A stretch of DNA of 64,000 nt from positions 995-64,994 of the forward strand of contig JBMORL010000103.1 of NCBI GenBank assembly GCA_049322335.1. Direction: 5' to 3'. This stretch comes from Bacteroidota bacterium (GTDB taxonomy: Bacteria; Bacteroidota; Bacteroidia; Flavobacteriales_D; UBA2798). Positions 3,512 to 62,321 of this stretch are shown here, piece by piece (position 1 is the stretch's first letter; every line of letters begins with the position of its first letter). A program made the translations under genes and the position numbers. The notes beneath the pieces were generated by a model. It did not search any database. It was not told the DNA's origin and was given only the letters and a program-made list of their open reading frames with translations.

Positions 3512-6466
3512 TTATCGTATAAGCGTTACGTGGCCAATAAAATCATATGGAATCCCATCGGTTGCCGTAAGGCGAACCTTCCAAATGTAAACATCGATGG
3601 CAGCCTCTTTACCCATGTATGTTCCGTCCCAGCCCTTGTTTATATCAGTCGATTCAAAAATCAATTCTCCCCAGCGGTTAAAAATCTGCATGCTGAATGT
3701 TGAAATACCCACGCCCTTACTCATGAATAGTTCATTTAAATCGCCACCGTTTGGTGTAAATGCGTTAGGACAATAGAAACTAAAGTCGGTGCCTATGTGC
3801 AAGTAATAAGTGATGGTTGAAGTACATCCCTGCGCATTGGTAACCGTTAAAGTAACTGTATAATCACCGGGCGCGGCATAGGTATGTTCGGGATGTTGCT
3901 CGGTTGATGTGGTTCCATCGCCAAAATTCCATTCCCACAAAATTCCGCCTGACGAAATATCTGTAAACGATACAACAGGATTTGTCATATCCGGATTTAA
4001 CGGTGAAAAAGAAAAACCGGCAACGGGTCCGGGAAAAACAGTAATCAGTGATGCTATAGTTGTGTCGTCTGTACAACCATCTGTAGTTGTAACCTGCAAC
4101 GTTACGGTATAAGTTCCGGGATTATTGTAAGTGTAGCCTGGATGCAGGACAGACGAAATTCCGCCATCACCAAAATCCCAGTTGTTTTGAGCAATAGAAT
4201 TAACAGGTGTGACAGACTGATTGGTAAAAAGCACTGTAAGTGGTGCGCATCCCTGTTGCGGAACAGCGGTAAAAGATGCGAATGGATCATAAAAAATTAC
4301 TGAAATGCTATCGGTATCTGTACACATTCCATTGGTAACAGTAACCCAATAATTACCGGTTTGCGCTACTGTAATAGTTTGTGTTGCCGAACCAGTATTC
4401 CAGGAAAACACCGATCCTGAATTTTGTGCATTAAGTGTTGCCGAACTTCCGGTACAAGCGGTTATGTTTGCACCGAGATTTACATCAACATTGTTAATTG
4501 TAATATCAATAGAATCTGTTGTGCTGCATCCGCTATTGTTTACCGTTACCCAATAACTTCCGCTGGCAGTTACATTATAAAACTGGTTGTTACTTCCGTC
4601 TTGCCAGATAAAATTTGCTCCCGGGTTTTGGGCATCGAGTAAAAAACCGGGCGCACATAAAGTAGTATCCATTCCCAGGTTAACAACGGGTGGAGATACA
4701 ACTACAATTATTGCCGAAGAAGTATCGGTATCGCCTAACGAATCGGTTACAATTACAGTATACGTAGTTGTTACTGCGGGACAAACATTGATGGGGCCTG
4801 CCGTGGTAGAAGTAATTCCATTATTCCAGGTATATTGGTAAGGTGGTGATCCTCCTGCTGTAGCGGCCATTAAATTTATACAATCGCCAACGCAAATTGT
4901 GTCGGGTTGAATGCTTACCGTTACGCCACAATTTACATTTATACTTTGTGTAATGGTATCGGCATCCCATGTGCAGTTTTGTACTATGAGTGTTACATTG
5001 TATGCTCCTGATGAAGTGTAGGTATGCACCGGGTGCTGAAGTGAAGAAGAATTTCCGTCACCAAAATCCCATACCCATGATTTAATATTATTACAGCCTG
5101 TTACACTCATGTCTGTAAATTCAACCGTGAGGCATGAATCAGTAAACTGAAAACCTGCTACCACCGTATCGGGATGATATAACCATAACACATCTGAGGT
5201 TCCCATTCCATCACGCAACCAAAATCCCGATTGATTTTGCCACCAGGCTTGTCCTTCTGTTATGGCAGGATGATTTAGTGTCGAAGGAGTTCCTTGAGTG
5301 CCGTATACGGCTGCTCCGGTATATTGCGCAATTAACGCGAATGCATTGGTGCCGGGATTATATCTCCAAAATTCACCACCAAAAGAAGCGTTTCCATCCA
5401 ATCTCCACATATTGTTGCAATCATCAACCCATACAGCTCTTTTTTCACTGTCCATGCCGGGAGAATTATTTGGGTCTTCGCTGCAGAGTGTAGTAAACTG
5501 CATTCCAACAGGACTAATAATTTTCATACAGGCCCACTGTTCAAGTGTAACATCAAATTTCCATACTTCGGTTTGAAAAGGGCCGAACATGATGATGCAA
5601 TTTCGCAGCATCCAAAAATCTCCGTTGCTATCCTGCCAGGTACACCAGGTAGAATTATTACTTGAACCGGCACCAGGTGTATTTGCCGGTGCGGGTACAC
5701 CTAATGTTCCAACTACAGGAGGCCCCATGGGTGTTCCTTTTTTCCATATCCACTGGCTGATAGAAACATCAAACATCCACATTACGCCATCCATCCAGTT
5801 AAAAAACCAAATGTTGTTGTTAGCATCTACCCACGGGTCTGTATTTTCTTCGATAAAACCACCGGGTGTATTAAGTGGTGAAGCAACATTTATTGTTCCA
5901 TAGGTTGGAGCAGTAACTGTTCCTCCGCTTCCATGCATCCAGGTCCATTGCCCTGTTCCAATATTATATTTCCAAAGGTCATTTGCCCAGCCGCTTTCGG
6001 TTCCGTAGACCCAAAGATTATTGTTTTGGTCAATCCATCCCGGTGATCCATGTAGTTTTCCTCCCGGCCATGTAGTTGCAGAGGCTACACCCATGGTTCC
6101 GAACACGCCTGGTGGAGCTGATATACCATTTCCACCATACCATGTCCATTCATTGGTTGCCGGGTTATAAGTCCACAAATCGTTTCGCATTGTTCCCGCA
6201 GGAAGATTTTCTCCACCCCAGTACCAGAACATTCCGTTTTGATCTACCCACGGAGTACTGCAATAACGGTCGCCTCCCGGTGTGTTTGCTGCATTAGGCA
6301 CACCCATCGTTCCAAATACCGGTGCCGATCCGGCTGCCGATCCATGCACCCATTCCCACTGGCCCTGTGAAAACACCTGAGAAAAGGAAAAAATAAAAAG
6401 CAGGCATAAAAAACCCAACGACCGAAACTTGACAGTAAAAAGCAAAAGTTGGCAACAGGTTTTCAT
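3512..6466 (-). CDS. Kelch-like propeller + PKD domains + T9SS type B (gliding-motility-associated) C-terminal domain protein
   Basis: Signal peptide from ATG 6466 (track start 6487). WxWxxG...GTxGV...NDLWxY blades, three WDFGDG/WNFGDG PKD motifs, and a C-terminal PNAFTPNG...IFNRWGE...GWDG...GHVTLIR. Confidence 0.9.
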   Translation of the reverse strand: MKTCCQLLLFTVKFRSLGFLCLLFIFSFSQVFSQGQWEWVHGSAAGSAPVFGTMGVPNAANTPGGDRYCSTPWVDQNGMFWYWGGENLPAGTMRNDLWTYNPATNEWTWYGGNGISAPPGVFGTMGVASATTWPGGKLHGSPGWIDQNNNLWVYGTESGWANDLWKYNIGTGQWTWMHGSGGTVTAPTYGTINVASPLNTPGGFIEENTDPWVDANNNIWFFNWMDGVMWMFDVSISQWIWKKGTPMGPPVVGTLGVPAPANTPGAGSSNNSTWCTWQDSNGDFWMLRNCIIMFGPFQTEVWKFDVTLEQWACMKIISPVGMQFTTLCSEDPNNSPGMDSEKRAVWVDDCNNMWRLDGNASFGGEFWRYNPGTNAFALIAQYTGAAVYGTQGTPSTLNHPAITEGQAWWQNQSGFWLRDGMGTSDVLWLYHPDTVVAGFQFTDSCLTVEFTDMSVTGCNNIKSWVWDFGDGNSSSLQHPVHTYTSSGAYNVTLIVQNCTWDADTITQSINVNCGVTVSIQPDTICVGDCINLMAATAGGSPPYQYTWNNGITSTTAGPINVCPAVTTTYTVIVTDSLGDTDTSSAIIVVVSPPVVNLGMDTTLCAPGFLLDAQNPGANFIWQDGSNNQFYNVTASGSYWVTVNNSGCSTTDSIDITINNVDVNLGANITACTGSSATLNAQNSGSVFSWNTGSATQTITVAQTGNYWVTVTNGMCTDTDSISVIFYDPFASFTAVPQQGCAPLTVLFTNQSVTPVNSIAQNNWDFGDGGISSVLHPGYTYNNPGTYTVTLQVTTTDGCTDDTTIASLITVFPGPVAGFSFSPLNPDMTNPVVSFTDISSGGILWEWNFGDGTTSTEQHPEHTYAAPGDYTVTLTVTNAQGCTSTITYYLHIGTDFSFYCPNAFTPNGGDLNELFMSKGVGISTFSMQIFNRWGELIFESTDINKGWDGTYMGKEAAIDVYIWKVRLTATDGIPYDFIGHVTLIR

Positions 6467-6620: not shown

Positions 6621-8405
6621 TTAGAAAGAGGATATAAATCTTGGGAGATTGTCTTCATGGTTTAGTTCAAGTTTCTTTTTAAGCCTTACTCTTGATATTT
6701 GTACACTACCGGGCACTATGTTCATTAGCCGGGCAATTTCCTTGGTTGATAAGTTCATTTTGATGTAAGCGCAGTGTTTGAGATCGTGCATGGTTAATTG
6801 CGGATACTGTTTTTCGAGTTTGGTAAAAAAGTGCGGATGGACCTGTTCAAAATGGTATTTGAATTGCTGCCAGTCTTTCTCCAGGCTCATATTTTCGGCA
6901 ATGGTCTTTTTTAGTTCATTTAGTTGAAGGATGATCTTTGCATCGGTACTTGAAATATTTTCAATTTTTTCATTTAATGTATTCAATATTTCGTTTTTGG
7001 TATAAATACTTACCGTTACAGTAGACAACTCACGGTTTTTAAGTTCAACCTCATCTTTCAGATGCATATTTTCAAGTTGTTGATTGCGAATGGTTAGTTC
7101 CTGCATCCGGACATGGTTTTCGTGTGCGAGTTTATTTTGTATAATGGTTTTTGATTTCAGGCGGATGGCTATAAACAGCATAATAAGAATAATTCCCGAT
7201 GAAAATAACAGTAACCATAAAAACCGGTTGCGGTTTTTAATAAGAAGTGTATCCTGTTCAAGCACTTTAACTTTTGCATTGGCAAGTTGTATGTCGCGGT
7301 CTTTTTTATCTACTTCATACAGAATACGCAGTTTTTCAATTCGCTCATCGCTTTCTGTATTAAAAATACTGTCTTTCACATTTATATATAAATGCGTGTA
7401 GTCGAATGCTTTTTTAAAATTATTTCCCGCATAATAAATTTGCGAAAGTTGTAATAATGCCTCGGATTTATGCAACATGCTTTGACCGGCTATAGCATTT
7501 TCAAGCGAAACCAATGCATATTTTTCAGCTTCAGTTAATTTTCCGGTACGGAAATACAAGTCGGCAATGTTGCGTTGTGTTATAGCAATACTTTTTTTAC
7601 TGCCGGAGGCCAGTTTAATTTCCAGCGCCTGTGTAAAGTAATCAAGTGCTTTATCGTATTCTTTCATTTCAAGGTAAACGGCACCAATATTGTTTAGTGA
7701 ACTGGCCAGGTTGTTTTTTCCCTCCAGTGTTTTTTTTATTTCCAGCCCGCGTAAATGATAAGAAAGTGAATTGCTGAAATCGCGTTTATCAAAATACACC
7801 ATTCCCATATTGTTATACAGGTATGCAATACGTTTTTTATCTTCCAGTTTCTGGTAAACGCTCAATGCTGCTGTAAAATTTTCGATAGCTTCTTCGTATT
7901 TTCGGCTGTAATAGAATACCAGCCCTATTGAATTTTTTACGTTGGCCTGTCCTTCGATATTTTTTGTTTGTTCATATATTTCCAGGGATCCCAAAAGATA
8001 TTTCATGGCCCGGGGATATTCACCCATGTCGGAATATATTCTTCCCAGGTTAAACATTTCTTTGGCTACCCCTGTATCCACCTGGTATTTTTTATAAATA
8101 TCTAAGGCATGATTGCTGTTTTCAATTGATTCGGCAAATTTCCCAAGAGTATAATATTCTTCACTCAAAACCGAAAGAAGCCGGGCGCGTTGTAGCGGAA
8201 AATGGGCTGAGTTTGCCAGTTGTAACAGGCTGTCGGTTGCAAGATTTTGTGCAGATGCCGCTGATGGTGTTAAAATAAACCAGGTTAAAACCAGCTTCAG
8301 CAATGTTTGGCACACATACCTTAAAAGCGGGTGAAACCGGCCAGTCGCAGCCCGTTCGAATGGTTTGGGATATTGGCGGACAAACGATAAGCAAAATTCA
8401 TTCAT
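6621..8405 (-). CDS. Membrane-anchored TPR sensor with C-terminal LuxR-type HTH (one-component regulator)
   Basis: TPR motifs (NLGRIY, NSIGLVF, NNMGMVY, NNIGAVY), a TM helix (FLWLLLFSSGIILIMLFIAI), a coiled coil, and HCAYIKMNLSTKEIARLMNIVPGSVQISRVRLKKKL. Exact start uncertain. Confidence 0.88.
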   Translation of the reverse strand: MNEFCLSFVRQYPKPFERAATGRFHPLLRYVCQTLLKLVLTWFILTPSAASAQNLATDSLLQLANSAHFPLQRARLLSVLSEEYYTLGKFAESIENSNHALDIYKKYQVDTGVAKEMFNLGRIYSDMGEYPRAMKYLLGSLEIYEQTKNIEGQANVKNSIGLVFYYSRKYEEAIENFTAALSVYQKLEDKKRIAYLYNNMGMVYFDKRDFSNSLSYHLRGLEIKKTLEGKNNLASSLNNIGAVYLEMKEYDKALDYFTQALEIKLASGSKKSIAITQRNIADLYFRTGKLTEAEKYALVSLENAIAGQSMLHKSEALLQLSQIYYAGNNFKKAFDYTHLYINVKDSIFNTESDERIEKLRILYEVDKKDRDIQLANAKVKVLEQDTLLIKNRNRFLWLLLFSSGIILIMLFIAIRLKSKTIIQNKLAHENHVRMQELTIRNQQLENMHLKDEVELKNRELSTVTVSIYTKNEILNTLNEKIENISSTDAKIILQLNELKKTIAENMSLEKDWQQFKYHFEQVHPHFFTKLEKQYPQLTMHDLKHCAYIKMNLSTKEIARLMNIVPGSVQISRVRLKKKLELNHEDNLPRFISSF

Positions 8406-31016: not shown

Positions 31017-32165
31017 ATGAAGAACCCGCTGTATTTTGTTTTGCTTCCAGTTTTCTTCTTGGCTTGCCGTAAAGATTCAGCCATAACCCCCCAATCCATA
31101 CCCGAAAAACAATGGCAGTTTCAATCGGTAACTGTTGGCGGATTGTTGGGAGACGCAGCAAGAGGAATGGCATATTACAACAACCGGTTGTTTTTATCTG
31201 GCTCTACTGCCTCTGCCGGAAACGGAATGACCGATCTTTATCTTGTGATTGCCGATACATCTCTTAATATTCTTGCGGAAAAATACATTGGCGGAGCGGC
31301 AGATGATGTGGGAATTTCAGCCTATACCACTACTAACGGTGTCCTCCTTTCCGGTTATACCGAAAGTTTTGGTAACCGGCAGGCCTGGCTGGTGAATGTA
31401 AATGTAAATGGAGATACACTGTGGACAAAACATTATAATATCACTTCTTCATCCGTGGCTTTTAATGTAACAGCCGATGCCAACGGTTTTTATATCGTGG
31501 GAAATTCGGCTGACGCTTACGGAAGCACCGATTTACTTCTCATCCGTACTGATCTGAATGGAGATACACTGTGGACAAAAAATTATGGTGGAAATCTCAG
31601 CGAATTAGGAACCGGTATAGAAATTCTTTCCAATGGAGAATTGATAATCTATGCCCATACCTACAGTTTCGGCAATGGCGACCGCGACCTGTGGCTGCTT
31701 AAAACAAACGCCAATGGAGATTCTTTGCAATCGTTGTTTATAGGTGGAGCGGGATATGAGCAACCGGGATACATGAATAAAACAGCTGCGGGAAAAATTC
31801 TTATTTCTGCACACTATGCCAGCAACGAACCCAATCACAATTTCTATAACGCCATGCTGGATGAAAACCTCACTATTCTGTGGCAATACGAATCAGGAGG
31901 TATGATGCATGATGGCAGTGAAGACATAATCGAATCGGATAACGGTTTTTTCAGTATCGGCCCGTCCATGAGCCAGTTTTCTACTGATTCGGATGTGATG
32001 GTAACGGAACTGAAGTCCGATGGAAGTTATAACCGGACATTTTATTACGATGCAGGAGCGGATGAGAGTGTTTTCCAGATCATCAGGACAGGAAACTCTT
32101 TTTACCTCTCAGGCACCAAAACCACAGGGGGAAACCAGGATGTGTTGGTGGTGAAGATGAAATGA
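31017..32165 (+). CDS. Beta-propeller lipoprotein
   Basis: Lipobox FFLAC; repeated DL(Y/W/L)L...NGDTLWTKxY blades. A 24-bp exact DNA repeat occurs at about 31407 and 31557. Confidence 0.8.
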   Translation: MKNPLYFVLLPVFFLACRKDSAITPQSIPEKQWQFQSVTVGGLLGDAARGMAYYNNRLFLSGSTASAGNGMTDLYLVIADTSLNILAEKYIGGAADDVGISAYTTTNGVLLSGYTESFGNRQAWLVNVNVNGDTLWTKHYNITSSSVAFNVTADANGFYIVGNSADAYGSTDLLLIRTDLNGDTLWTKNYGGNLSELGTGIEILSNGELIIYAHTYSFGNGDRDLWLLKTNANGDSLQSLFIGGAGYEQPGYMNKTAAGKILISAHYASNEPNHNFYNAMLDENLTILWQYESGGMMHDGSEDIIESDNGFFSIGPSMSQFSTDSDVMVTELKSDGSYNRTFYYDAGADESVFQIIRTGNSFYLSGTKTTGGNQDVLVVKMK

Positions 32166-32199
32166 ATGTGATTGAAAGTTGCAAGTTTAAAAGTTGAGA

Positions 32200-32297
32200 A
32201 AGTTTTGAAAGTTAGTCCGTATAACTTTCGCAACCTGCCAACTTTCTCAACTTGCTAACTTTATAACAACTCATTCGCCAGGTTAGCCAGCTCGGAT
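32200..32297. repeat. 98-bp perfect direct repeat, copy 1 (duplicated phoH 3' end plus downstream hairpin)
   Basis: Identical base for base to 33321-33418 (offset 1121). The minus strand encodes SELANLANELL-stop. Confidence 0.97.
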
Positions 32298-32347
32298 AGG
32301 GTAAATTTAATTTTCCTGCATTTGACTCTAAAATATTTCTTTTAATT

Positions 32348-33226
32348 TTAAAAACTAAAACCAGTTGTAACGGAAAGGCTCACCACTTTTTTATTTCTAA
32401 ACTTTGGTTCTTCGAGATAATAGAACAGAAGGGCGTTTCTGTTCGTAGAAGGATTTTCATCATAATCACTATAATATACGGGATCTGAGTTTGATGCGTC
32501 ATATTTTTGTACACCCCCATATCCCAGTCCTATCGAAAGATCCAATGTCCACCTTTCTCCTGGGAAAAATTGTATGCCCGGGGTGAAAATTATTGCCGAA
32601 TGAATTTGTTTTTCATCAATTGTGATTTTGTAAACCGGGGGATTTTGACCCTGACTTCCTCCATATCCTATTTTCTTATACTCTTTATTTTCATAAAACA
32701 GCATCGATCGAAACAAACTGATCCCAAGATAAAAACCATTCATTTTTGATTTTACAGGTGGTAATAAATAAAACCTGAAATCGCCCTTCAAAAAATTTCC
32801 GCCTCCTGGTAAGCGATTCGTATTCCAGGGAAAAGCAGGACTCCAGTTCAACCCACCGTATATTTCAATAGAAAGAGGCCAGGCTATATATCGTTCATAT
32901 CCCAGTGCAGCTTTTCCTCCTAAAGGAGAAAGAGGTGATGTTTTTATGATATTGTTTTTGGAAGAAGTATTCCACTCGCTTTTGGGCATATAAATTTTTT
33001 CTCGTTTTGGTTTCGGTTCCGGCTTTGACTCAGGATGAACGTATAGATTACTTACCTGGTTTCGTTTTATCGAGTGTACTATTCCATTGTCCTTATAATT
33101 TACGCGTCTTTTATTATCAGAAAGAATGAAGCATGCTTTTTTTGTGCCATCTTTAAAGTATACTGTATCTTGTGCCAGTAACGTGCATGGCAGAATAATT
33201 AAATATAATATAAAAATCAACCTCAT
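32348..33226 (-). CDS. Outer-membrane beta-barrel-like protein (DUF3575-like), cassette cargo
   Basis: Likely ATG 33226 (MRLIFILYLIILPCTLLAQDTVYFKDG). NIIKTSPLSP..GK..LGYER, FRFY, GFYLG, TLDLSIGLGY, terminal aromatic GFSF. Confidence 0.75.
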   Translation of the reverse strand: MRLIFILYLIILPCTLLAQDTVYFKDGTKKACFILSDNKRRVNYKDNGIVHSIKRNQVSNLYVHPESKPEPKPKREKIYMPKSEWNTSSKNNIIKTSPLSPLGGKAALGYERYIAWPLSIEIYGGLNWSPAFPWNTNRLPGGGNFLKGDFRFYLLPPVKSKMNGFYLGISLFRSMLFYENKEYKKIGYGGSQGQNPPVYKITIDEKQIHSAIIFTPGIQFFPGERWTLDLSIGLGYGGVQKYDASNSDPVYYSDYDENPSTNRNALLFYYLEEPKFRNKKVVSLSVTTGFSF

Positions 33227-33320
33227 TCCGGTTTTCAAGTTACACTTTTTTTTAAATAAATCAAATAATGTTGAAGGAAAGGCAAGATAATTTGAAGCAA
33301 AGGATAAGTTACAAGTTTAT

Positions 33321-33418
33321 AAGTTTTGAAAGTTAGTCCGTATAACTTTCGCAACCTGCCAACTTTCTCAACTTGCTAACTTTATAACAACTCATTCGCC
33401 AGGTTAGCCAGCTCGGAT
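33321..33418. repeat. 98-bp perfect direct repeat, copy 2 (overlaps the real phoH stop)
   Basis: Identical to 32200-32297; contains the phoH stop at 33382-33384. Confidence 0.97.
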
Positions 33419-34728
33419 CGTTCCCCTTTTTCGAGAGTGATGTGGGAGAAGAGTTTATTTCCCTTTAACCGGTCGATGATGTAGGAAAGTCCGTTGGATT
33501 GTTCATCGAGATAAGGTGTGTCGATCTGGTTAATATCACCGGTAAAAATGATTTTAGTGTTTTCTCCCGCACGGGTGATAATGGTTTTTACTTCGTGCGG
33601 AGTGAGATTTTGCGCTTCATCAATAATGAAAAAGATATTCGAAAAACTTCTCCCCCGGATGTAGGCGAGGGGAGTCACCACAATTTTATTTTCCTTGGTC
33701 ATTTCCTCGATAGCTTTGTATCTTTTTTCATTTTCAGAAAACTGCTGCTGGATGAATTTTAAATTATCCCACAGCGGTTCCATATAAGGATTGATCTTTT
33801 CTTTGGCATCCCCGGGAAGATAACCGATGTCTTTATTGCTGAGCGGAACAATGGGACGTGCAAGAATGATCTGCGCATGTTTTTTTCGTTGTTCTATCGC
33901 ACCGGCCAATGCCAGCAATGTTTTGCCAGTTCCTGCCACGCCTTGAATAGTCACCAGTTTCACTTCGTCATTCATAATAGCATGTAACGCGAATGTTTGT
34001 TCGGCATTACGTGGTTTAATGCCGTAGGTAAATTGTTTTTCCACCCGTTCGATTCTTTCCAGAAACGGGTTGTAGTAAGCCAGCGTGGAAGATTTATCAC
34101 CTTTTAAAATATAATACTGATTATTTTCTTTCAGGCTTCCCAGTATGGAAATGTTTTCAGTGTAACCGTCAGTAAAAATTTTTCTTATTTCTTCGGGATC
34201 TACATTTTCAATTACTGTTTTTGCATATTGCACCTGGCTCAGGTCGTGGATTTTTCCGGTTTCATAATCTTCGGCAACTATTCCCAATGCTTTTGCCTTG
34301 AGGCGGAGATTGATGTCTTTGGAAATGAGAATTACTTTTTTGTCTTTCTCTTCATTCATCAAAGAAAGTGCTGCATTGAGAATGCGGTGGTCGTTTTTTC
34401 TTTCGCCATACACTACGTTCGCATCGGTGCCATTCATTTTCTGGTTCATCACAATTTTCAGGCAACCCTGATTCGGCCCTTCCAGCGGAATCCATTCCTG
34501 TAGCGACATATTGCCCGATAATTTATCAATAATGCGGATGCATTCGCGCGCTTCGAAATTTTTTGAATCGTGTCCGCGTTTGAAATTATCCAGTTCTTCC
34601 AATACGGTGATTGGAATAGCCACATAATGCTCTTCAAAATTGTTTAACGAATTATGGTCGTGGAGAATTACAGAGGTGTCGAGAACAAAAATTTTCAAAG
34701 GACCCTTCTTTTTGGCTGCCATCATCAT
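33382..34728 (-). CDS. phoH: PIN-domain PhoH-family ATPase (PhoH2/YlaK-like)
   Basis: PIN domain FVLDTSVILHD...VLEELD...NDHRIL...SKDINLR; Walker A GVAGTGKT; IRGRS, IIDEAQN, GDINQID. The start is one of three adjacent ATGs (34722-34728). Confidence 0.92.
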   Translation of the reverse strand: MMMAAKKKGPLKIFVLDTSVILHDHNSLNNFEEHYVAIPITVLEELDNFKRGHDSKNFEARECIRIIDKLSGNMSLQEWIPLEGPNQGCLKIVMNQKMNGTDANVVYGERKNDHRILNAALSLMNEEKDKKVILISKDINLRLKAKALGIVAEDYETGKIHDLSQVQYAKTVIENVDPEEIRKIFTDGYTENISILGSLKENNQYYILKGDKSSTLAYYNPFLERIERVEKQFTYGIKPRNAEQTFALHAIMNDEVKLVTIQGVAGTGKTLLALAGAIEQRKKHAQIILARPIVPLSNKDIGYLPGDAKEKINPYMEPLWDNLKFIQQQFSENEKRYKAIEEMTKENKIVVTPLAYIRGRSFSNIFFIIDEAQNLTPHEVKTIITRAGENTKIIFTGDINQIDTPYLDEQSNGLSYIIDRLKGNKLFSHITLEKGERSELANLANELL

Positions 34729-34901
34729 AAGCAAAGAAATTTATATTGACTTCCATAAAATTAAACCAATTCAAAAACGGGCTTCCCCGGGCAGGGAAAA
34801 GTAATGAATAAACGATTGTTGAATAATGGCCGAAATGCTGGATTGACAAGGGTTTTGGGTATAAAATCAATGATTAAATTCGCACATTAATGTGGTGTGA
34901 A

Positions 34902-35853: not shown

Positions 35854-35995
35854 CCTCACCCCCGGCCCCTCTCCCGTGGAGAGGGGTGTAATTTCTTTGT
35901 TGGGATAAAATCTATAGATTTTATCCCAAAAGTTGATACTCAAAATACCAGCATTTTCTCCCCCTCTCTCGGGGAGAGGGGGCCGGGGGGTGAGG
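35854..35995. repeat. GC-rich inverted REP-like pair
   Basis: CCTCACCCCCGGCCCCTCTCCC...GAGGGG and CTCCCCCTCTC..GGGGAGAGGGGGCCGGGGGGTGAGG flank an AT-rich spacer. Confidence 0.85.
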
Positions 35996-60716: not shown

Positions 60717-62321
60717 TTATTTAATCTCAATATTCATTATTTTAAATATATCTTTTAATTCTGTTGCGAATGACAATCCTTCTACCCCGAATCCTCCTAC
60801 TTGTGTACACATAATACCAATAAGTGATTTATCACTTTTGTTAAAAACTGGACCACCAATGTTGGTTTCATTAATTTTCGCGTCCGTCTGAATCATTTTA
60901 ACAGCATCATTTTTCCTGAAACCAGATAATATTCCCGAAGTAATCGTTGGTCCGGCCCCCATATTAAATGGCACGCCAACTGCTAGTAATTCGATTCCGA
61001 TTTCCGAATTATGTTCAATGTTTATATAAGCTGATGGATAATTGCCTTCCGGAAGTTTTAACAGAACTATACCTGATTTTTTATGTTTATAAACTACACC
61101 GGCATTCAGTTTTGTTTTATCGCTCAGTTTTATTTCAACGGAATCTTGATTTTCAATATTATTAATATGTGATAATACATATCCGTTTTTTGAGATTATT
61201 ACTCCTGACCCTTTTTTTGAATCATTTTCAATAATCACGTAAGATAACAGGGCATTTTTCAAATCCTGTGGTTCTCTTGTGATAAGTTCCGGACGGATTA
61301 AAATTTTTGTGGTATTTTCGATTAATTTCTCCATCTCAATATTTTCCCTGAATTCACTATAATTTAAAAGCCCAATGAGTGATTTTTCGATGCAATTGTA
61401 ATAACTGTCATATAAATACAGATTGTTTAGCGGAACAAAATCAGATGTCTTTTCTGTTGAAAAAGTCTTTATCGTTTCTTTTGATAAATAATCTTTAATT
61501 TGCCATTCAAGAACAATGTTAGTCGAAAAAATCTGATTTGAAACCACATGATAAGTTATTTCTTTTACAGTTGCATCCAATAAACAACTGTTGTAACTTC
61601 CCGCATGAAATTCTGCAGTACTATCCATAAAATTACATTTGTATAAAAAATCGTTCATAGCTACTGAGAAAACAGTATTATCAAATTCCATTGAATTGTT
61701 TATAGTATTTTGAGGACGTGCAGGATCTTGCATGGCATTTTTATAGTGGTGCCATCTTTTATAATAATTGACTTTCATTTTACCCGACTCCACCATAAAA
61801 GCAATTTTATCTATATACATGTATTTTTGATTTTCTCCTCTCAGAGGAAAGGGAATCATATCAGGTAACTTATATTCTTTTGAGTATACTTTTTTCGGAT
61901 AAAACAATATGTAAAGTGCTCCTGCCGCAGGATATCCTAGTGCCCAAAGATTACTTGAACCATCTTCTATGATATCATTATTTAAAAGATAAAATAATCC
62001 TCCGCATACAGAAATTCCTAACGCAAGATCTGCAAATTTTAATTTATTAAACCGGTCTGCGATTATTACATCATAACTTTTAGAATATTTTTCCTTTTCC
62101 CTTGTTACAACATATAGCTGTGATTTGTTTTCCAAAACCACTTTTACATTTCCGGCAGAATCCGGCTCTAGTTTTTCATTATGTGAATTATTAATAAGAT
62201 AAGATTGACTGACATTTTCGCCCAGTCCTAAATTAGATTTCGTATGCACATTAATCAAAATATTACAGGAAGACAGGCAAACTGTGTTGACAACAAAAAA
62301 TATAAAAACCAGAGTTTTCAT
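60717..62321 (-). CDS. Lipoprotein with a degenerate trypsin-like domain (pseudoprotease)
   Basis: Lipobox LSSC; KGSG; triad positions read VLSHINNI, GIVLLK, INETNIGGP; 4-bp overlap with dedA. Confidence 0.82.
   Translation of the reverse strand: MKTLVFIFFVVNTVCLSSCNILINVHTKSNLGLGENVSQSYLINNSHNEKLEPDSAGNVKVVLENKSQLYVVTREKEKYSKSYDVIIADRFNKLKFADLALGISVCGGLFYLLNNDIIEDGSSNLWALGYPAAGALYILFYPKKVYSKEYKLPDMIPFPLRGENQKYMYIDKIAFMVESGKMKVNYYKRWHHYKNAMQDPARPQNTINNSMEFDNTVFSVAMNDFLYKCNFMDSTAEFHAGSYNSCLLDATVKEITYHVVSNQIFSTNIVLEWQIKDYLSKETIKTFSTEKTSDFVPLNNLYLYDSYYNCIEKSLIGLLNYSEFRENIEMEKLIENTTKILIRPELITREPQDLKNALLSYVIIENDSKKGSGVIISKNGYVLSHINNIENQDSVEIKLSDKTKLNAGVVYKHKKSGIVLLKLPEGNYPSAYINIEHNSEIGIELLAVGVPFNMGAGPTITSGILSGFRKNDAVKMIQTDAKINETNIGGPVFNKSDKSLIGIMCTQVGGFGVEGLSFATELKDIFKIMNIEIK

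Follow-up and report, generated by a model that had tools for sequence, protein, structure and literature searches.

The duplicated phoH end and the gene it encloses

The window, by which we mean the whole stretch of DNA that was analysed (64,000 nucleotides), comes from an uncultured Bacteroidota bacterium and contains a core neighbourhood made up of valS, ppk, ppx, phoH and dnaE. Immediately downstream of phoH we find a single inserted gene bracketed by two identical copies of the phoH 3′ end, here called R. The features of the locus, in order along the forward strand, are the following.

31017-32165, plus strand: gene convergent with phoH, 382 aa, signal or lipoprotein-like N-terminus, no Pfam match
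32175-32262, no strand assigned: distal AAGTT/AACTT octamer hairpin of full length, separating the cassette from the convergent 382-aa gene
32200-32297, no strand assigned: distal copy of R; displaced pseudo 3′ end of phoH (32264-32297), stop codon (32261-32263) and 61 nt of hairpin
32298-33320, minus strand: inserted segment, 1023 bp, comprising one gene with 50 nt of 3′ flank and 82 nt of upstream region
32348-33238, minus strand: cargo gene, 296 aa; predicted signal peptide and beta-barrel, outer-membrane-protein type
33304-33388, minus strand: proximal hairpin, downstream of the intact phoH; −22.2 kcal/mol and z −1.5, computed for 33287-33396 (minus strand)
33321-33418, no strand assigned: proximal copy of R; real phoH 3′ end (33385-33418), stop codon (33382-33384) and 61 nt of hairpin
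33382-34734, minus strand: phoH, intact, PIN-PhoH (PhoH2-type), 450 aa; PF02562 PhoH 3.2e-52, PF13638 PIN_4 3e-35

A search of the window for repeats shows that positions 32200-32297 and 33321-33418 are identical throughout their 98 nt (100%) and start 1121 nt apart; from the size of the genome (4.27 Mb) we estimate the expectation of an exact 98-mer repeat by chance at about 1e-46. On the minus strand R comprises 1 nt of an Arg codon, the last 11 codons of phoH (SELANLANELL), the stop codon and 61 nt of an AAGTT-octamer hairpin, the codons and stop in the proximal copy being those that phoH itself uses. An initial annotation of this DNA had claimed both the exact duplication and this make-up, and in both it was right. 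It had also described a looser similarity running 15-25 bp past R, which we find on the left side only, the right flanks being unrelated. The left flanks, GA-AAGTTGCAAGTTTA[AAAGTTGAG]A and GATAAGTTACAAGTTTA[-]T, can be aligned, with an indel of one 9-nt unit, to about positions 32174 and 33302, and a blastn alignment across R and this left extension covers 111 nt at 96% identity. The right boundary of R is sharp and lies inside phoH; the left boundary is fuzzy and lies in the outer arm of the hairpin, with about 15 of 17 positions matching beside the 9-nt unit indel, and further octamer units are present in both left flanks. R is asymmetric and is not a self-contained palindrome, since 37 nt of coding sequence stand on one side only. 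Full-length R occurs in these two copies only in the 4.27-Mb genome, where other matches extend to at most 41 nt and belong to the octamer-array family, and an attP-like third copy was not found in it.

An orthologue of phoH is present in most of 41 relatives (best identity 85%). The C-terminus of the protein, ...KGERSELANL/MAN-E/D-L/M-L/M, is conserved at 19 of the 20 phoH loci examined (the twentieth, L002, was printed out of register), and the coding part of R is therefore native to phoH and the distal copy a pseudo-end. The distal hairpin has a computed stability of −33.3 kcal/mol (z −4.95, with 0 of 200 shuffles as good) and 22-nt arms that are 86% complementary, and it was probably the original two-way terminator for phoH and the 382-aa gene. 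A variant octamer array (AAGTTACAAGTTTAT) forms the outer left arm of the proximal hairpin and accounts for its lower stability. The hairpin centre reads GAAAGTTA-N7-TAACTTTC, with 8-nt arms and a 7-nt spacer. Rfam offers no family for the hairpin, the sole match being a meaningless miRNA (E 0.81), and a scan for sigma-70 promoters and terminators gave results at shuffle level, the sigma-70 consensus being uninformative for Bacteroidota.

The inserted segment has a GC content of 34.8%, as against 41.5% in the 3-kb flanks. Its gene appears to encode a lineage-specific protein of outer-membrane type, in keeping with the barrel-like gene with its own upstream region that had been proposed from the sequence. 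The predicted product has a signal peptide, cleaved near LLA|QD. A small beta domain follows at about residues 23-66, then a disordered linker and a beta-barrel whose last residues are ...TGFSF; a public gene call starts at Met84 and gives 213 aa. An alignment of homologues shows conservation of the AQD motif and of the signal sequence at the N-terminus, and the cargo protein has the C-terminus ...FSF. In an AF2 model (mean pLDDT 71.6) residues 96-295 form long antiparallel strands, and the top Foldseek matches are the outer-membrane barrels OmpT, OprF-N, CarO, Ail and OmpW, all with E values of at least 7e-3; the protein would thus combine the signal peptide, antiparallel barrel and C-terminal aromatic residue that mark outer-membrane beta-barrels. 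The Pfam family DUF3575 matches with E 0.0015 and 18.3 bits, under its cut-off of 21.1. A HMMER search returned 14 matches, the best other match having 35% identity; matches were found in 1 of 11 other genomes of the same family and in 3 of 40 relatives, all weak (E values of at least 1.4e-5), and plasmid and phage collections contained no match. Searching metagenome contigs with the 382-aa neighbour gave 82 pattern matches and zero relatives, an exact 31-nt pattern from R gave 0 matches in metagenome contigs, and the single protein P0002 gave 600 pattern matches and zero relatives in genome contigs.

The cassette is single-copy in the genome and carries no recombinase. The genome-wide recombinase search was made up of PF00589, PF01797 and the integron integrase IntI, and it yielded 15 matches to Phage_integrase (PF00589) and 5 to Y1_Tnp (PF01797), none of either on the 68.6-kb contig that holds the locus (C103), and no integron integrase (TIGR02249) over the cut-off, the best score being 115 bits against 265. 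The 19 ORFs that we examined within about 12 kb of the cassette are housekeeping genes or are without a mobility domain. The description of the locus as a one-gene insertion lacking a recombinase is therefore upheld for these three families.

Assembly, strains and relatives

The source genome (G000) is a fragmented, metagenome-type assembly of 4.27 Mb in 132 contigs, with 31 gaps of 100 N, so that an artefact has to be considered: the repeat might have been created in assembly, or a free 1121-bp circle and an empty chromosomal site might have been threaded into one contig. In keeping with such a reading, the Logan k=31 contigs all break at R, leaving linkage across R unproved by them, and they are therefore blind to that linkage and to rare empty-site or circle junctions. 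Against it, the cassette is present in contigs of four of four metagenome runs from four studies, and the same four junction contigs together with a separate 98-nt unitig for R recur in two runs from different studies (X1 and X3). The depth of the R unitig is 1.85 times (X1) and 1.56 times (X3) that of the flanks. The cassette itself stands at 23.9, against 23.9 and 21.7 in its flanks, in X1, and at 33, against 34.2 and 32.1, in X3; the resulting cassette-to-flank ratios of 1.05 and 0.99 indicate no loss at the per-cent level, and a free circle would not be so constant in two samples. Furthermore, perfect 127-nt overlaps at the scaffold gaps imply a final k of 127, longer than the 98-nt repeat, and the assembler's words would therefore have spanned R with both flanks. 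We regard an artefact as extremely improbable. Uncovered parts of the locus in runs X7 and X8 are low-coverage holes and were not counted as evidence.

Over the stretch, 18 SNPs separate the strain in X3 from the source genome, a divergence of about 0.6% in the flanks, and none of them lies in R or in either outer arm. The difference between the outer arms of the two copies is thus not later decay, because both outer arms and R are unchanged in this strain; by our own estimate, uniform decay would yield 4-5 changes in 26 nt together with 0 in 98 nt with a probability of about 4e-4. The scar is real and is stable across several strains. The initial annotation had called the insertion recent, which is hard to reconcile with a 98-nt R with the same boundaries in a strain that is about 0.6% divergent in its flanks and with the presence of the cassette in all four runs. 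It had also proposed on/off control of the surface protein, to which the data lend no support: in X1 and X3 the cassette is as deep as its flanks, in k=31 contigs that are blind to rare junctions. A joint that skips the 1121 bp was seen in none of the four runs, whose k=31 contigs cannot bridge R and are hence silent on rare excision. That recombination between the two copies would restore an intact phoH, as had been pointed out, follows by construction.

Relative to the genome of another member of the family the cargo gene is an addition. In that genome (G009) ppk-ppx and phoH converge with about 67 nt between them and neither the cargo gene nor the 382-aa gene is present; because ppx and phoH are adjacent there, the cargo gene appears to have been added, in a comparison that is made at the level of the family, without DNA-level alignment, and in which the 382-aa gene is also extra. 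A DNA-level empty site was not found, the collection holding no other genome of the genus and two scans of metagenome contigs being empty, and the arrangement expected of a donor (phoH followed by the cargo gene, without a duplication) was observed nowhere. Runs X10-X19, which contain 5-23% of the sequence words, may hold relatives at the level of the genus. Since both copies of R are 100% identical, a donor-derived copy and an in-situ duplication cannot be distinguished at this locus.

A parallel case bears on this point. A genome of another family (G021) has a phoH-end repeat of 175 nt, 89% identical, around a different gene, again with a sharp boundary inside phoH and a fuzzy one in the terminator. 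Within its 49 codons there are 5 synonymous and 2 nonsynonymous differences (p about 0.02, our own binomial estimate), a bias that points to a diverged donor: the two ends would have evolved as working genes in separate lineages, the donor copy arriving with the cargo. The crossover boundaries differ between the two cases, at codon −11 with 98 nt in the source genome and at codon −49 with 175 nt in G021. G021 was the only one among the 400 others in a screen of 401 genomes of the order for duplicated phoH ends, a screen that is blind to duplicates under about 25 aa, that of the source genome included. Five other genomes with three phoH matches proved to hold paralogues on other contigs or, in G099, two full copies on different contigs. 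The G021 cargo occurs in 1 of the 61 genomes of its family, namely G021 itself, and no donor was found among them. Co-orientation of the cargo with its upstream gene was dropped as a signal, neighbours being usually co-oriented and the G021 cargo being convergent.

Origin of the duplication

We consider that the locus is probably the scar of a one-off event of the kind termed insertion with long target duplication, produced by homology-anchored recombination combined with one illegitimate joint, and not an active cassette system of an undescribed kind. The ancestral locus would have read ppx, perhaps the 382-aa gene, the octamer hairpin and, convergent with these, phoH. In a single, old event, DNA carrying the outer-membrane-protein gene would have been taken in by the recombination and repair machinery of the host, with homologous pairing in the phoH 3′ end and hairpin on one side and illegitimate joining at phoH codon −11 on the other; the intact phoH would then end in one 98-nt copy, and the resident copy would have been displaced beyond the new gene. 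One route to this product would be one-sided, homology-facilitated illegitimate recombination with DNA from a close relative that already carried the gene behind phoH; a second route, a single crossover of a circularised fragment, would give the same product. One sharp and one fuzzy boundary are the pattern expected of one illegitimate joint and fading homology, whereas a staggered cut would leave both boundaries sharp. The complete and stable hairpin at the distal site and the weaker one behind the intact phoH also fit the distal site as the original target. At present each repeat may serve as a terminator, strong in the copy that follows the new gene and weaker in the copy that follows phoH, and apart from this the two would be substrates for rare RecA-type deletion only, with no dedicated recombinase. 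Both the route of recombination and the terminator role are what we infer from the architecture.

It is possible to read the two copies of R instead as attL and attR of a minimal integrative cassette, either a relic or a unit mobilised in trans. Such a cassette would have the 3′ end of phoH, or the hairpin there, as its target and would depend on a recombinase encoded elsewhere; its excision as a 1121-bp circle would switch the surface protein off. Direct repeats of a gene 3′ end are the classical signature of att sites, and cis-mobilizable elements (CIMEs), which are decayed ICEs or IMEs, keep attL and attR after loss of the integrase (PMC5704250). The hairpin centre resembles a recombinase core site, the 15 tyrosine-recombinase matches elsewhere in the genome could act in trans, and the phoH 3′ end has been struck twice independently, here and in G021. 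Nevertheless, several observations lead us to think this reading unlikely. R has no attP-like partner beyond its two copies; cassette and protein alike are single-copy and turned up in no other context, plasmid or phage; and 1023 bp is too small for a decayed integrase. Repeat length and boundary differ between the two phoH cases, which is unexpected for a site-specific crossover, a detectable phoH-end duplicate occurs in just 1 of 400 other genomes, and the depth of the cassette in X1 and X3 equals that of its flanks. Mobility of the cassette is not demonstrable. The suggestion that the gene was mobilised as a cassette, or captured by a route keyed to the hairpin, likewise finds no footing in a single-copy segment that has no close homologue in another context, and no recombinase linked to octamer hairpins was found in the genome.

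Alternatively, the cargo gene may already have been resident and about 100 nt, comprising the phoH end and the inner hairpin, may later have been duplicated on its far side, for instance through template switching or through one-ended gene conversion begun in a second AAGTT-octamer array. Such arrays are dispersed in the genome (23 runs of at least 3 units, compared with 0-9 for 12 control pentamers), so that two neighbouring intergenic regions could each hold one; the octamer units in both left flanks of R and its abrupt, illegitimate-looking right boundary would suit such copying, and elsewhere in the genome near-identical palindromic elements do occupy adjacent intergenic regions. A local copy would, however, have to start from the poorer hairpin beside the intact phoH and yet complete the best one at the patched site. 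R, with its one-sided 37 nt of coding sequence, is also unlike the self-contained REPIN/MITE-like pairs, and the donor-type divergence in G021 would be left unexplained. We give this explanation a low probability.

Several families of palindromic intergenic elements are present in the source genome, some as near-identical pairs that flank genes or lie in adjacent intergenic regions. Seven further near-identical repeats flank genes there. Four of these (C20:140085, C52, C46 and C36) were rejected as analogues because they are self-contained, palindromic, multi-copy elements of REPIN/MITE type, and a fifth (C118) because it is a composite of such pieces. The remaining two, on C22 and at a tRNA-Pro gene (C98), are the only repeats in this genome that resemble the phoH scar. 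Differences between the C22 copies show no synonymous bias, as would be expected of an in-situ duplicate.

One could take a broader view, in which long hairpins of short tandem units, such as the AAGTT octamers behind phoH, are preferred entry points for the recombinase-independent or in-trans capture of single surface-protein genes together with the 3′ end and terminator of a neighbour, the 98-nt repeats permitting reversible loss and re-gain within the population. The scars at phoH in a second family and, in the source genome, at a tRNA and a second gene would then reflect one general, unnamed mechanism. We hold this to be quite doubtful.

Known systems compared

The locus shares features with several systems. 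Clusters of attC sites without an integrase (CALINs) were reportedly described by Cury and colleagues in 2016, and like an integron cassette or CALIN the unit consists of one ORF and, after it, an imperfect palindrome some 60-120 nt long, with hairpins in direct repeat and no recombinase of its own. In attC the R″ and R′ sites are laid out as ...AAC / GTT..., with GTTRRRY at the 3′ end. The arms of the phoH hairpin (5′-AAGTT...AACTT-3′) have the opposite polarity to this layout, the genome has no IntI over the cut-off, the repeat holds 37 nt of a host gene and the cargo is preceded by an upstream region of its own (82 nt). With REP/REPIN-RAYT and IS200/IS605 elements, which are served by Y1 HUH transposases, the genome shares its five Y1_Tnp matches and its palindromic intergenic families, but R is asymmetric, has two copies and contains host coding sequence. 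Moreover, the five Y1_Tnp loci and a weak Y1-like ORF (C20:72890-73453) have no AAGTT arrays in their 600-nt flanks, with 0-3 AAGTT/AACTT pentamers per approximately 1.5 kb.

Prophage scars may duplicate the 3′ end of a gene, as e14 does at icd. In such scars, and in CIMEs, integrase-less DNA is bracketed by a duplicated gene 3′ end and the target gene is intact, as here. A CIME depends on a cognate integrase and a related element; for the phoH cassette neither was found, with no integrase on the 68.6-kb contig and no third copy of R in the genome, and its 1023 bp hold no remnant of integration or transfer genes. Nor do the boundaries of the two phoH cases coincide, as the same crossover would require. 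Integrase-less duplications of gene ends should not, we suggest, be taken for att sites by default.

Homology-facilitated illegitimate recombination has reportedly been observed in naturally transformable bacteria, by de Vries and Wackernagel and by Prudhomme and colleagues, both in 2002. Here, as there, a homologous anchor would be combined with a joint made by microhomology or illegitimately, bringing in foreign DNA with no dedicated recombinase taking part; such recombination would therefore account for one sharp and one homology-limited boundary and for the donor-type divergence in G021. Laboratory events are reported usually to delete recipient DNA and not to duplicate the anchor. At phoH, unlike in those events, the anchor would have been duplicated, and the only hint of transformability seen in the source genome is a dprA homologue.

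Insertion with long target duplication, reportedly treated by Nobusato and colleagues in 2000, is the class in which our preferred reading places the locus. Its published criteria are a repeat longer than 30 bp, an insert under 20 kb that carries no mobility genes and a repeat that is not high-copy (Furuta, Abe & Kobayashi 2010, NAR, PMC2853133). At phoH the repeat measures 98 nt at 100% identity or 111 nt at 96%, the 1023-bp insert holds one ORF and has no mobility gene in or beside it, and the 98-nt sequence occurs twice only. A further criterion is an empty-site genome that has the repeat sequence once and whose flanks both align; the comparison here is with G009, where ppx and phoH are adjacent but alignment at DNA level is lost. 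As this architecture falls within published criteria (PMC2853133), we do not retain the claim of an undescribed system. In the cases described there the inserts likewise have no transposase or integrase, the direct repeats that flank them measure tens to hundreds of bp and are single-copy in the empty sites, repeat length varies by case, the insert is often lower in GC and there is an overlap between the repeat and the 3′ end of a neighbouring gene in two H. influenzae cases (PMC2853133). The cases given there carry restriction-modification genes, and the authors suspect DNA breakage by the cargo itself (PMC2853133), whereas the phoH cargo is probably of outer-membrane type; they were proved by an empty site in the same species, where we compare at the level of the family; and at phoH, unlike in those cases, one boundary of the repeat lies inside an octamer-repeat hairpin. 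On our preferred reading, insertion with long target duplication would extend to cargo other than restriction-modification genes and to Bacteroidota, and a lineage-specific surface protein could be added to a housekeeping neighbourhood (valS, ppk, ppx, phoH and dnaE) with no mobile-element gene involved. The synonymous-biased divergence in G021 would be sequence evidence that such scars can come from recombination with a diverged donor, and the sharp edge and the homology-limited edge of a scar would together preserve a record of its route of entry.

A 98-nt repeat at the end of phoH

We have found that an intact phoH gene is followed by a single inserted gene and a second, displaced copy of its own end. 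The elements of the locus are as follows.

33382-34734, minus strand: intact PIN-PhoH gene, 450 aa (Pfam: PhoH 3.2e-52, PIN_4 3e-35)
33321-33418: proximal repeat copy, at the intact phoH
32348-33238, minus strand: cargo ORF, 296 aa, the sole ORF of the 1023-bp insert, preceded by 82 nt and followed by 50 nt
32200-32297: distal repeat copy
31017-32165: convergent gene, 382 aa, N-terminus signal- or lipoprotein-like, NGDTLWTK repeated internally, unmatched in Pfam

A repeat search and the sequence itself bear out the exact repeat reported in the initial annotation (98 nt, 100% identity, spacing 1121 nt) and also its make-up: on the minus strand, each copy consists of a single Arg-codon nucleotide, eleven codons that spell SELANLANELL, a TAA stop and a 61-nt hairpin whose AAGTT/AACTT units are 8-9 nt each. 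The looser similarity said to continue past the repeat is found on the left, where blastn extends the match to 111 nt at 96% (about 15 of 17 more positions match, with one 9-nt unit counted as an indel), but not on the right, where the flanks are unrelated. Of 20 orthologous loci compared, 19 keep the PhoH C-terminus, the remaining one being out of register; the codons within the repeat are accordingly native to phoH, and it is the distal copy that represents a displaced pseudo-end. Across the source genome (4.27 Mb in 132 contigs, 40.8% GC; the contig with the locus, C103, is 68,566 nt) the full-length repeat is present in just these two copies.

The assembly contains 31 gaps of exactly 100 N (e.g. 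C2:28655-28754 and C22:7353-7452). Perfect overlaps of 127 nt border at least 13 of these gaps, which represent joins left open in a k=127 assembly. The final word length of 127 thus exceeds the 98-nt repeat, so that the assembler's words would have spanned the repeat together with both flanks. We note that the same gaps yield false "127-nt repeats spaced 227 nt" in this genome. For an independent check of the locus we used Logan contigs (k=31) of four metagenome runs from four studies, which break at the repeat and do not themselves prove linkage across it; the cassette is present in all four.

The cassette in metagenome runs (Logan contigs, k=31)
X1 (possibly the source sample): contigs end at 32229, cover 32268-33350 and resume at 33389; repeat unitig depth 42.1; flank/cassette depths 23.9, 23.9, 21.7
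X3 (another study; 18 SNPs across the stretch): the same four breakpoints; repeat unitig depth 51.6, 0 differences; flank/cassette depths 34.2, 33, 32.1
X7 and X8: 3-6x coverage; fragments of the cassette interior

Cassette depth equals flank depth in X1 and X3, in contigs whose 31-nt words are too short to bridge the repeat or to reveal rare empty sites or circles, and we regard it as highly improbable that the arrangement is an artefact or a free circle. The insertion had been described as recent; since the X3 strain shares both cassette and repeat, the duplication predates the ~0.6% divergence of the strains, and that description is not supported.

The inserted gene and its surroundings

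The 1023-bp insert has a GC content of 34.8%, against 41.5% in its flanks. Pfam returns only DUF3575 for the cargo protein, below threshold, and a word-based search of 5.8 billion proteins yields nothing but the protein itself, with its start called at Met84 (213 aa). A full HMMER search of 1.84 billion representatives found 14 proteins, the best at 35% (E 1.4e-32) and 31% identity (E 6.6e-19), and in their alignment the signal peptide ends ...A|QD, the N-terminal domain is small and the C-terminus reads ...GY/F-x-F. Because homologues keep the signal peptide and N-terminal domain, the 296-aa reading is likely and, judged by this alignment, the deposited start at Met84 is probably wrong. In the AlphaFold model (mean pLDDT 71.6), long antiparallel strands come after a small beta domain; among its Foldseek matches the outer-membrane barrels OmpT, OprF-N, CarO, Ail and OmpW rank highest, and Sm/SH3-like small barrels match the N-terminal domain, all at E >= 7e-3. 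The plasmid and phage collections hold no match to the cargo protein and the source genome no paralogue; 3 of 40 relatives have weak matches only.

No mobility domain turned up in the 19 ORFs examined within ~12 kb of the cassette, among them valS, ppk, ppx, a DUF481 protein, a ParA-type ATPase, dnaE, a PP-loop ATPase and an M1 peptidase. Across the whole genome we count 15 Phage_integrase and 5 Y1_Tnp matches; C103 carries none of these, and no integron integrase in the genome exceeds the cut-off. In a relative of the same family (G009), ppk-ppx converges with phoH across ~67 nt and an ordinary terminator. Neither the 382-aa gene nor the barrel-type gene lies in that gap, which argues that both were added in the lineage of the source genome, the gap thereby gaining two lineage-specific secreted-protein genes. 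Behind the DUF481 gene, at 35854-35995, we also observe a GC-rich pair of inverted repeats with 33-nt arms (CCCCTCTCCCGTGGAGAGGGG and similar); elements similar to GGAGAGGG occur elsewhere in the genome (C81 and C20:125003).

Hairpins, parallel duplications and a proposed route of insertion

Together with its own left flank, the distal copy folds into a long hairpin (-33.3 kcal/mol, z -4.95; none of 200 shuffles did as well), while the proximal copy, with a variant left arm, forms a weaker one (-22.2 kcal/mol, z -1.5). This outer-arm difference is unchanged in X3, and so goes back to the insertion and did not arise by slippage afterwards; the stronger hairpin points to the distal site as the original target. 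Both copies may now act as terminators, and read-through from phoH into the cargo gene is conceivable. Arrays of AAGTT units are dispersed in the genome, with 23 runs of at least three units (0-9 for 12 control pentamers) and a longest array of 19 units. They are intergenic, with units of 8-9 nt at ~19 loci (e.g. C120:26304-26461, C114:45431-45561, C11:11598-11663 and C94:80076-80143), and some are inverted pairs forming long hairpins. No Rfam family covers the hairpin or the arrays, and no array in the genome lies beside a Y1 transposase gene.

We compared the last 80 PhoH residues with 401 genomes of the order and found one further local duplicate of the phoH end, in a genome of another family (G021). 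Two other pairs in the source genome also lie at gene ends.

G021, locus L025 (C220), 6159-6333 and 7549-7723: 175 nt, 89% identity, the last 49 phoH codons plus 27 nt
Source genome, locus L028, C22:117221-117298 and 119017-119094: 78 nt, 95% identity, covering the final 26 codons of an ORF of 180 aa
Source genome, C98:60890-61007 and 61388-61505: perfect 118-nt direct repeat, spacing 498 nt, at tRNA-Pro(GGG)

In G021 the copies enclose a convergent 261-aa gene whose product has an HExxHxxGxxH motif. This cargo, too, is lineage-specific, being detected in just one of the 61 genomes of that family, and none of the ORFs listed for 3-10.5 kb of the locus looks recombinase-like. Over the 49 codons the copies differ at five synonymous and two nonsynonymous codons, a bias suggesting that selection acted on the two ends in separate lineages and that one arrived with the cargo. 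At C22 the second copy lies behind a 525-aa gene with a T9SS sorting tail, in the architecture seen at phoH without the hairpin, and by our own reading all four sense-codon differences are nonsynonymous, as expected of an in-situ duplicate that decayed afterwards. For phoH itself, we think it unlikely that the 98 nt were copied locally at a later time behind an already resident gene.

In G021, as in the source genome, the edge within phoH is sharp; past the stop codon, the similarity in G021 fades into two different terminators. Both phoH cases pair a sharp edge in the gene with an edge in the terminator that is limited by homology, as fits a recombination with one homologous and one illegitimate side. 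Recombination of this kind would have brought in the cargo, possibly by homology-facilitated illegitimate recombination, or else by a circularised fragment that integrated through a single crossover. We somewhat favour this origin for the phoH scar, with the original target at the distal site. A staggered cut fits less well, since it would be expected to produce two sharp edges. Mobilisation in trans, or a CIME-type element, seems improbable to us; a site-specific crossover would put the edge at the same position in both phoH cases.

The C98 repeat overlaps the final 10 nt of tRNA-Pro(GGG), and a partial tRNA-like stretch precedes its second copy; with just 380 bp enclosed, the pair resembles a scar of att type or of a duplication. 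Other gene-flanking pairs were rejected as analogues of the phoH scar, being palindromic and of REPIN/MITE type (C20:140085-141443, C52:2011-3563, C46:3038-4299, C36:133686-135661 and C20:72618-73706). They comprise several families of 83-232 nt, whose paired copies, 95-99% identical, occupy neighbouring intergenic spaces on either side of one or two genes; IS200-like (RAYT-like) Y1 transposase genes lie between the copies of two pairs. We also note a CRISPR-like array at a contig end (C92:113-1314), with a 47-nt repeat (GTTGTAAATAGC...AAACAAC), a length typical of type II-C systems in Bacteroidota, and a period of ~77 nt.

Relation to known systems

Nothing we found speaks for the mobile element or on-off switch initially proposed. 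The repeat is distinct from REPIN and IS200-type elements, and the cassette from integron cassettes and from CIMEs as characterised in PMC5704250. It shares three of the four published features of an "insertion with long target duplication" (PMC2853133; Furuta, Abe & Kobayashi 2010), namely a repeat longer than 30 bp, an insert below 20 kb without mobility genes and a repeat that is not high-copy; the fourth is an empty-site genome. The phoH locus is a real, stable and well-delimited insertion scar of an already described kind, noteworthy for its clean anatomy, for a second event at the same gene in G021 and for its hairpin setting.
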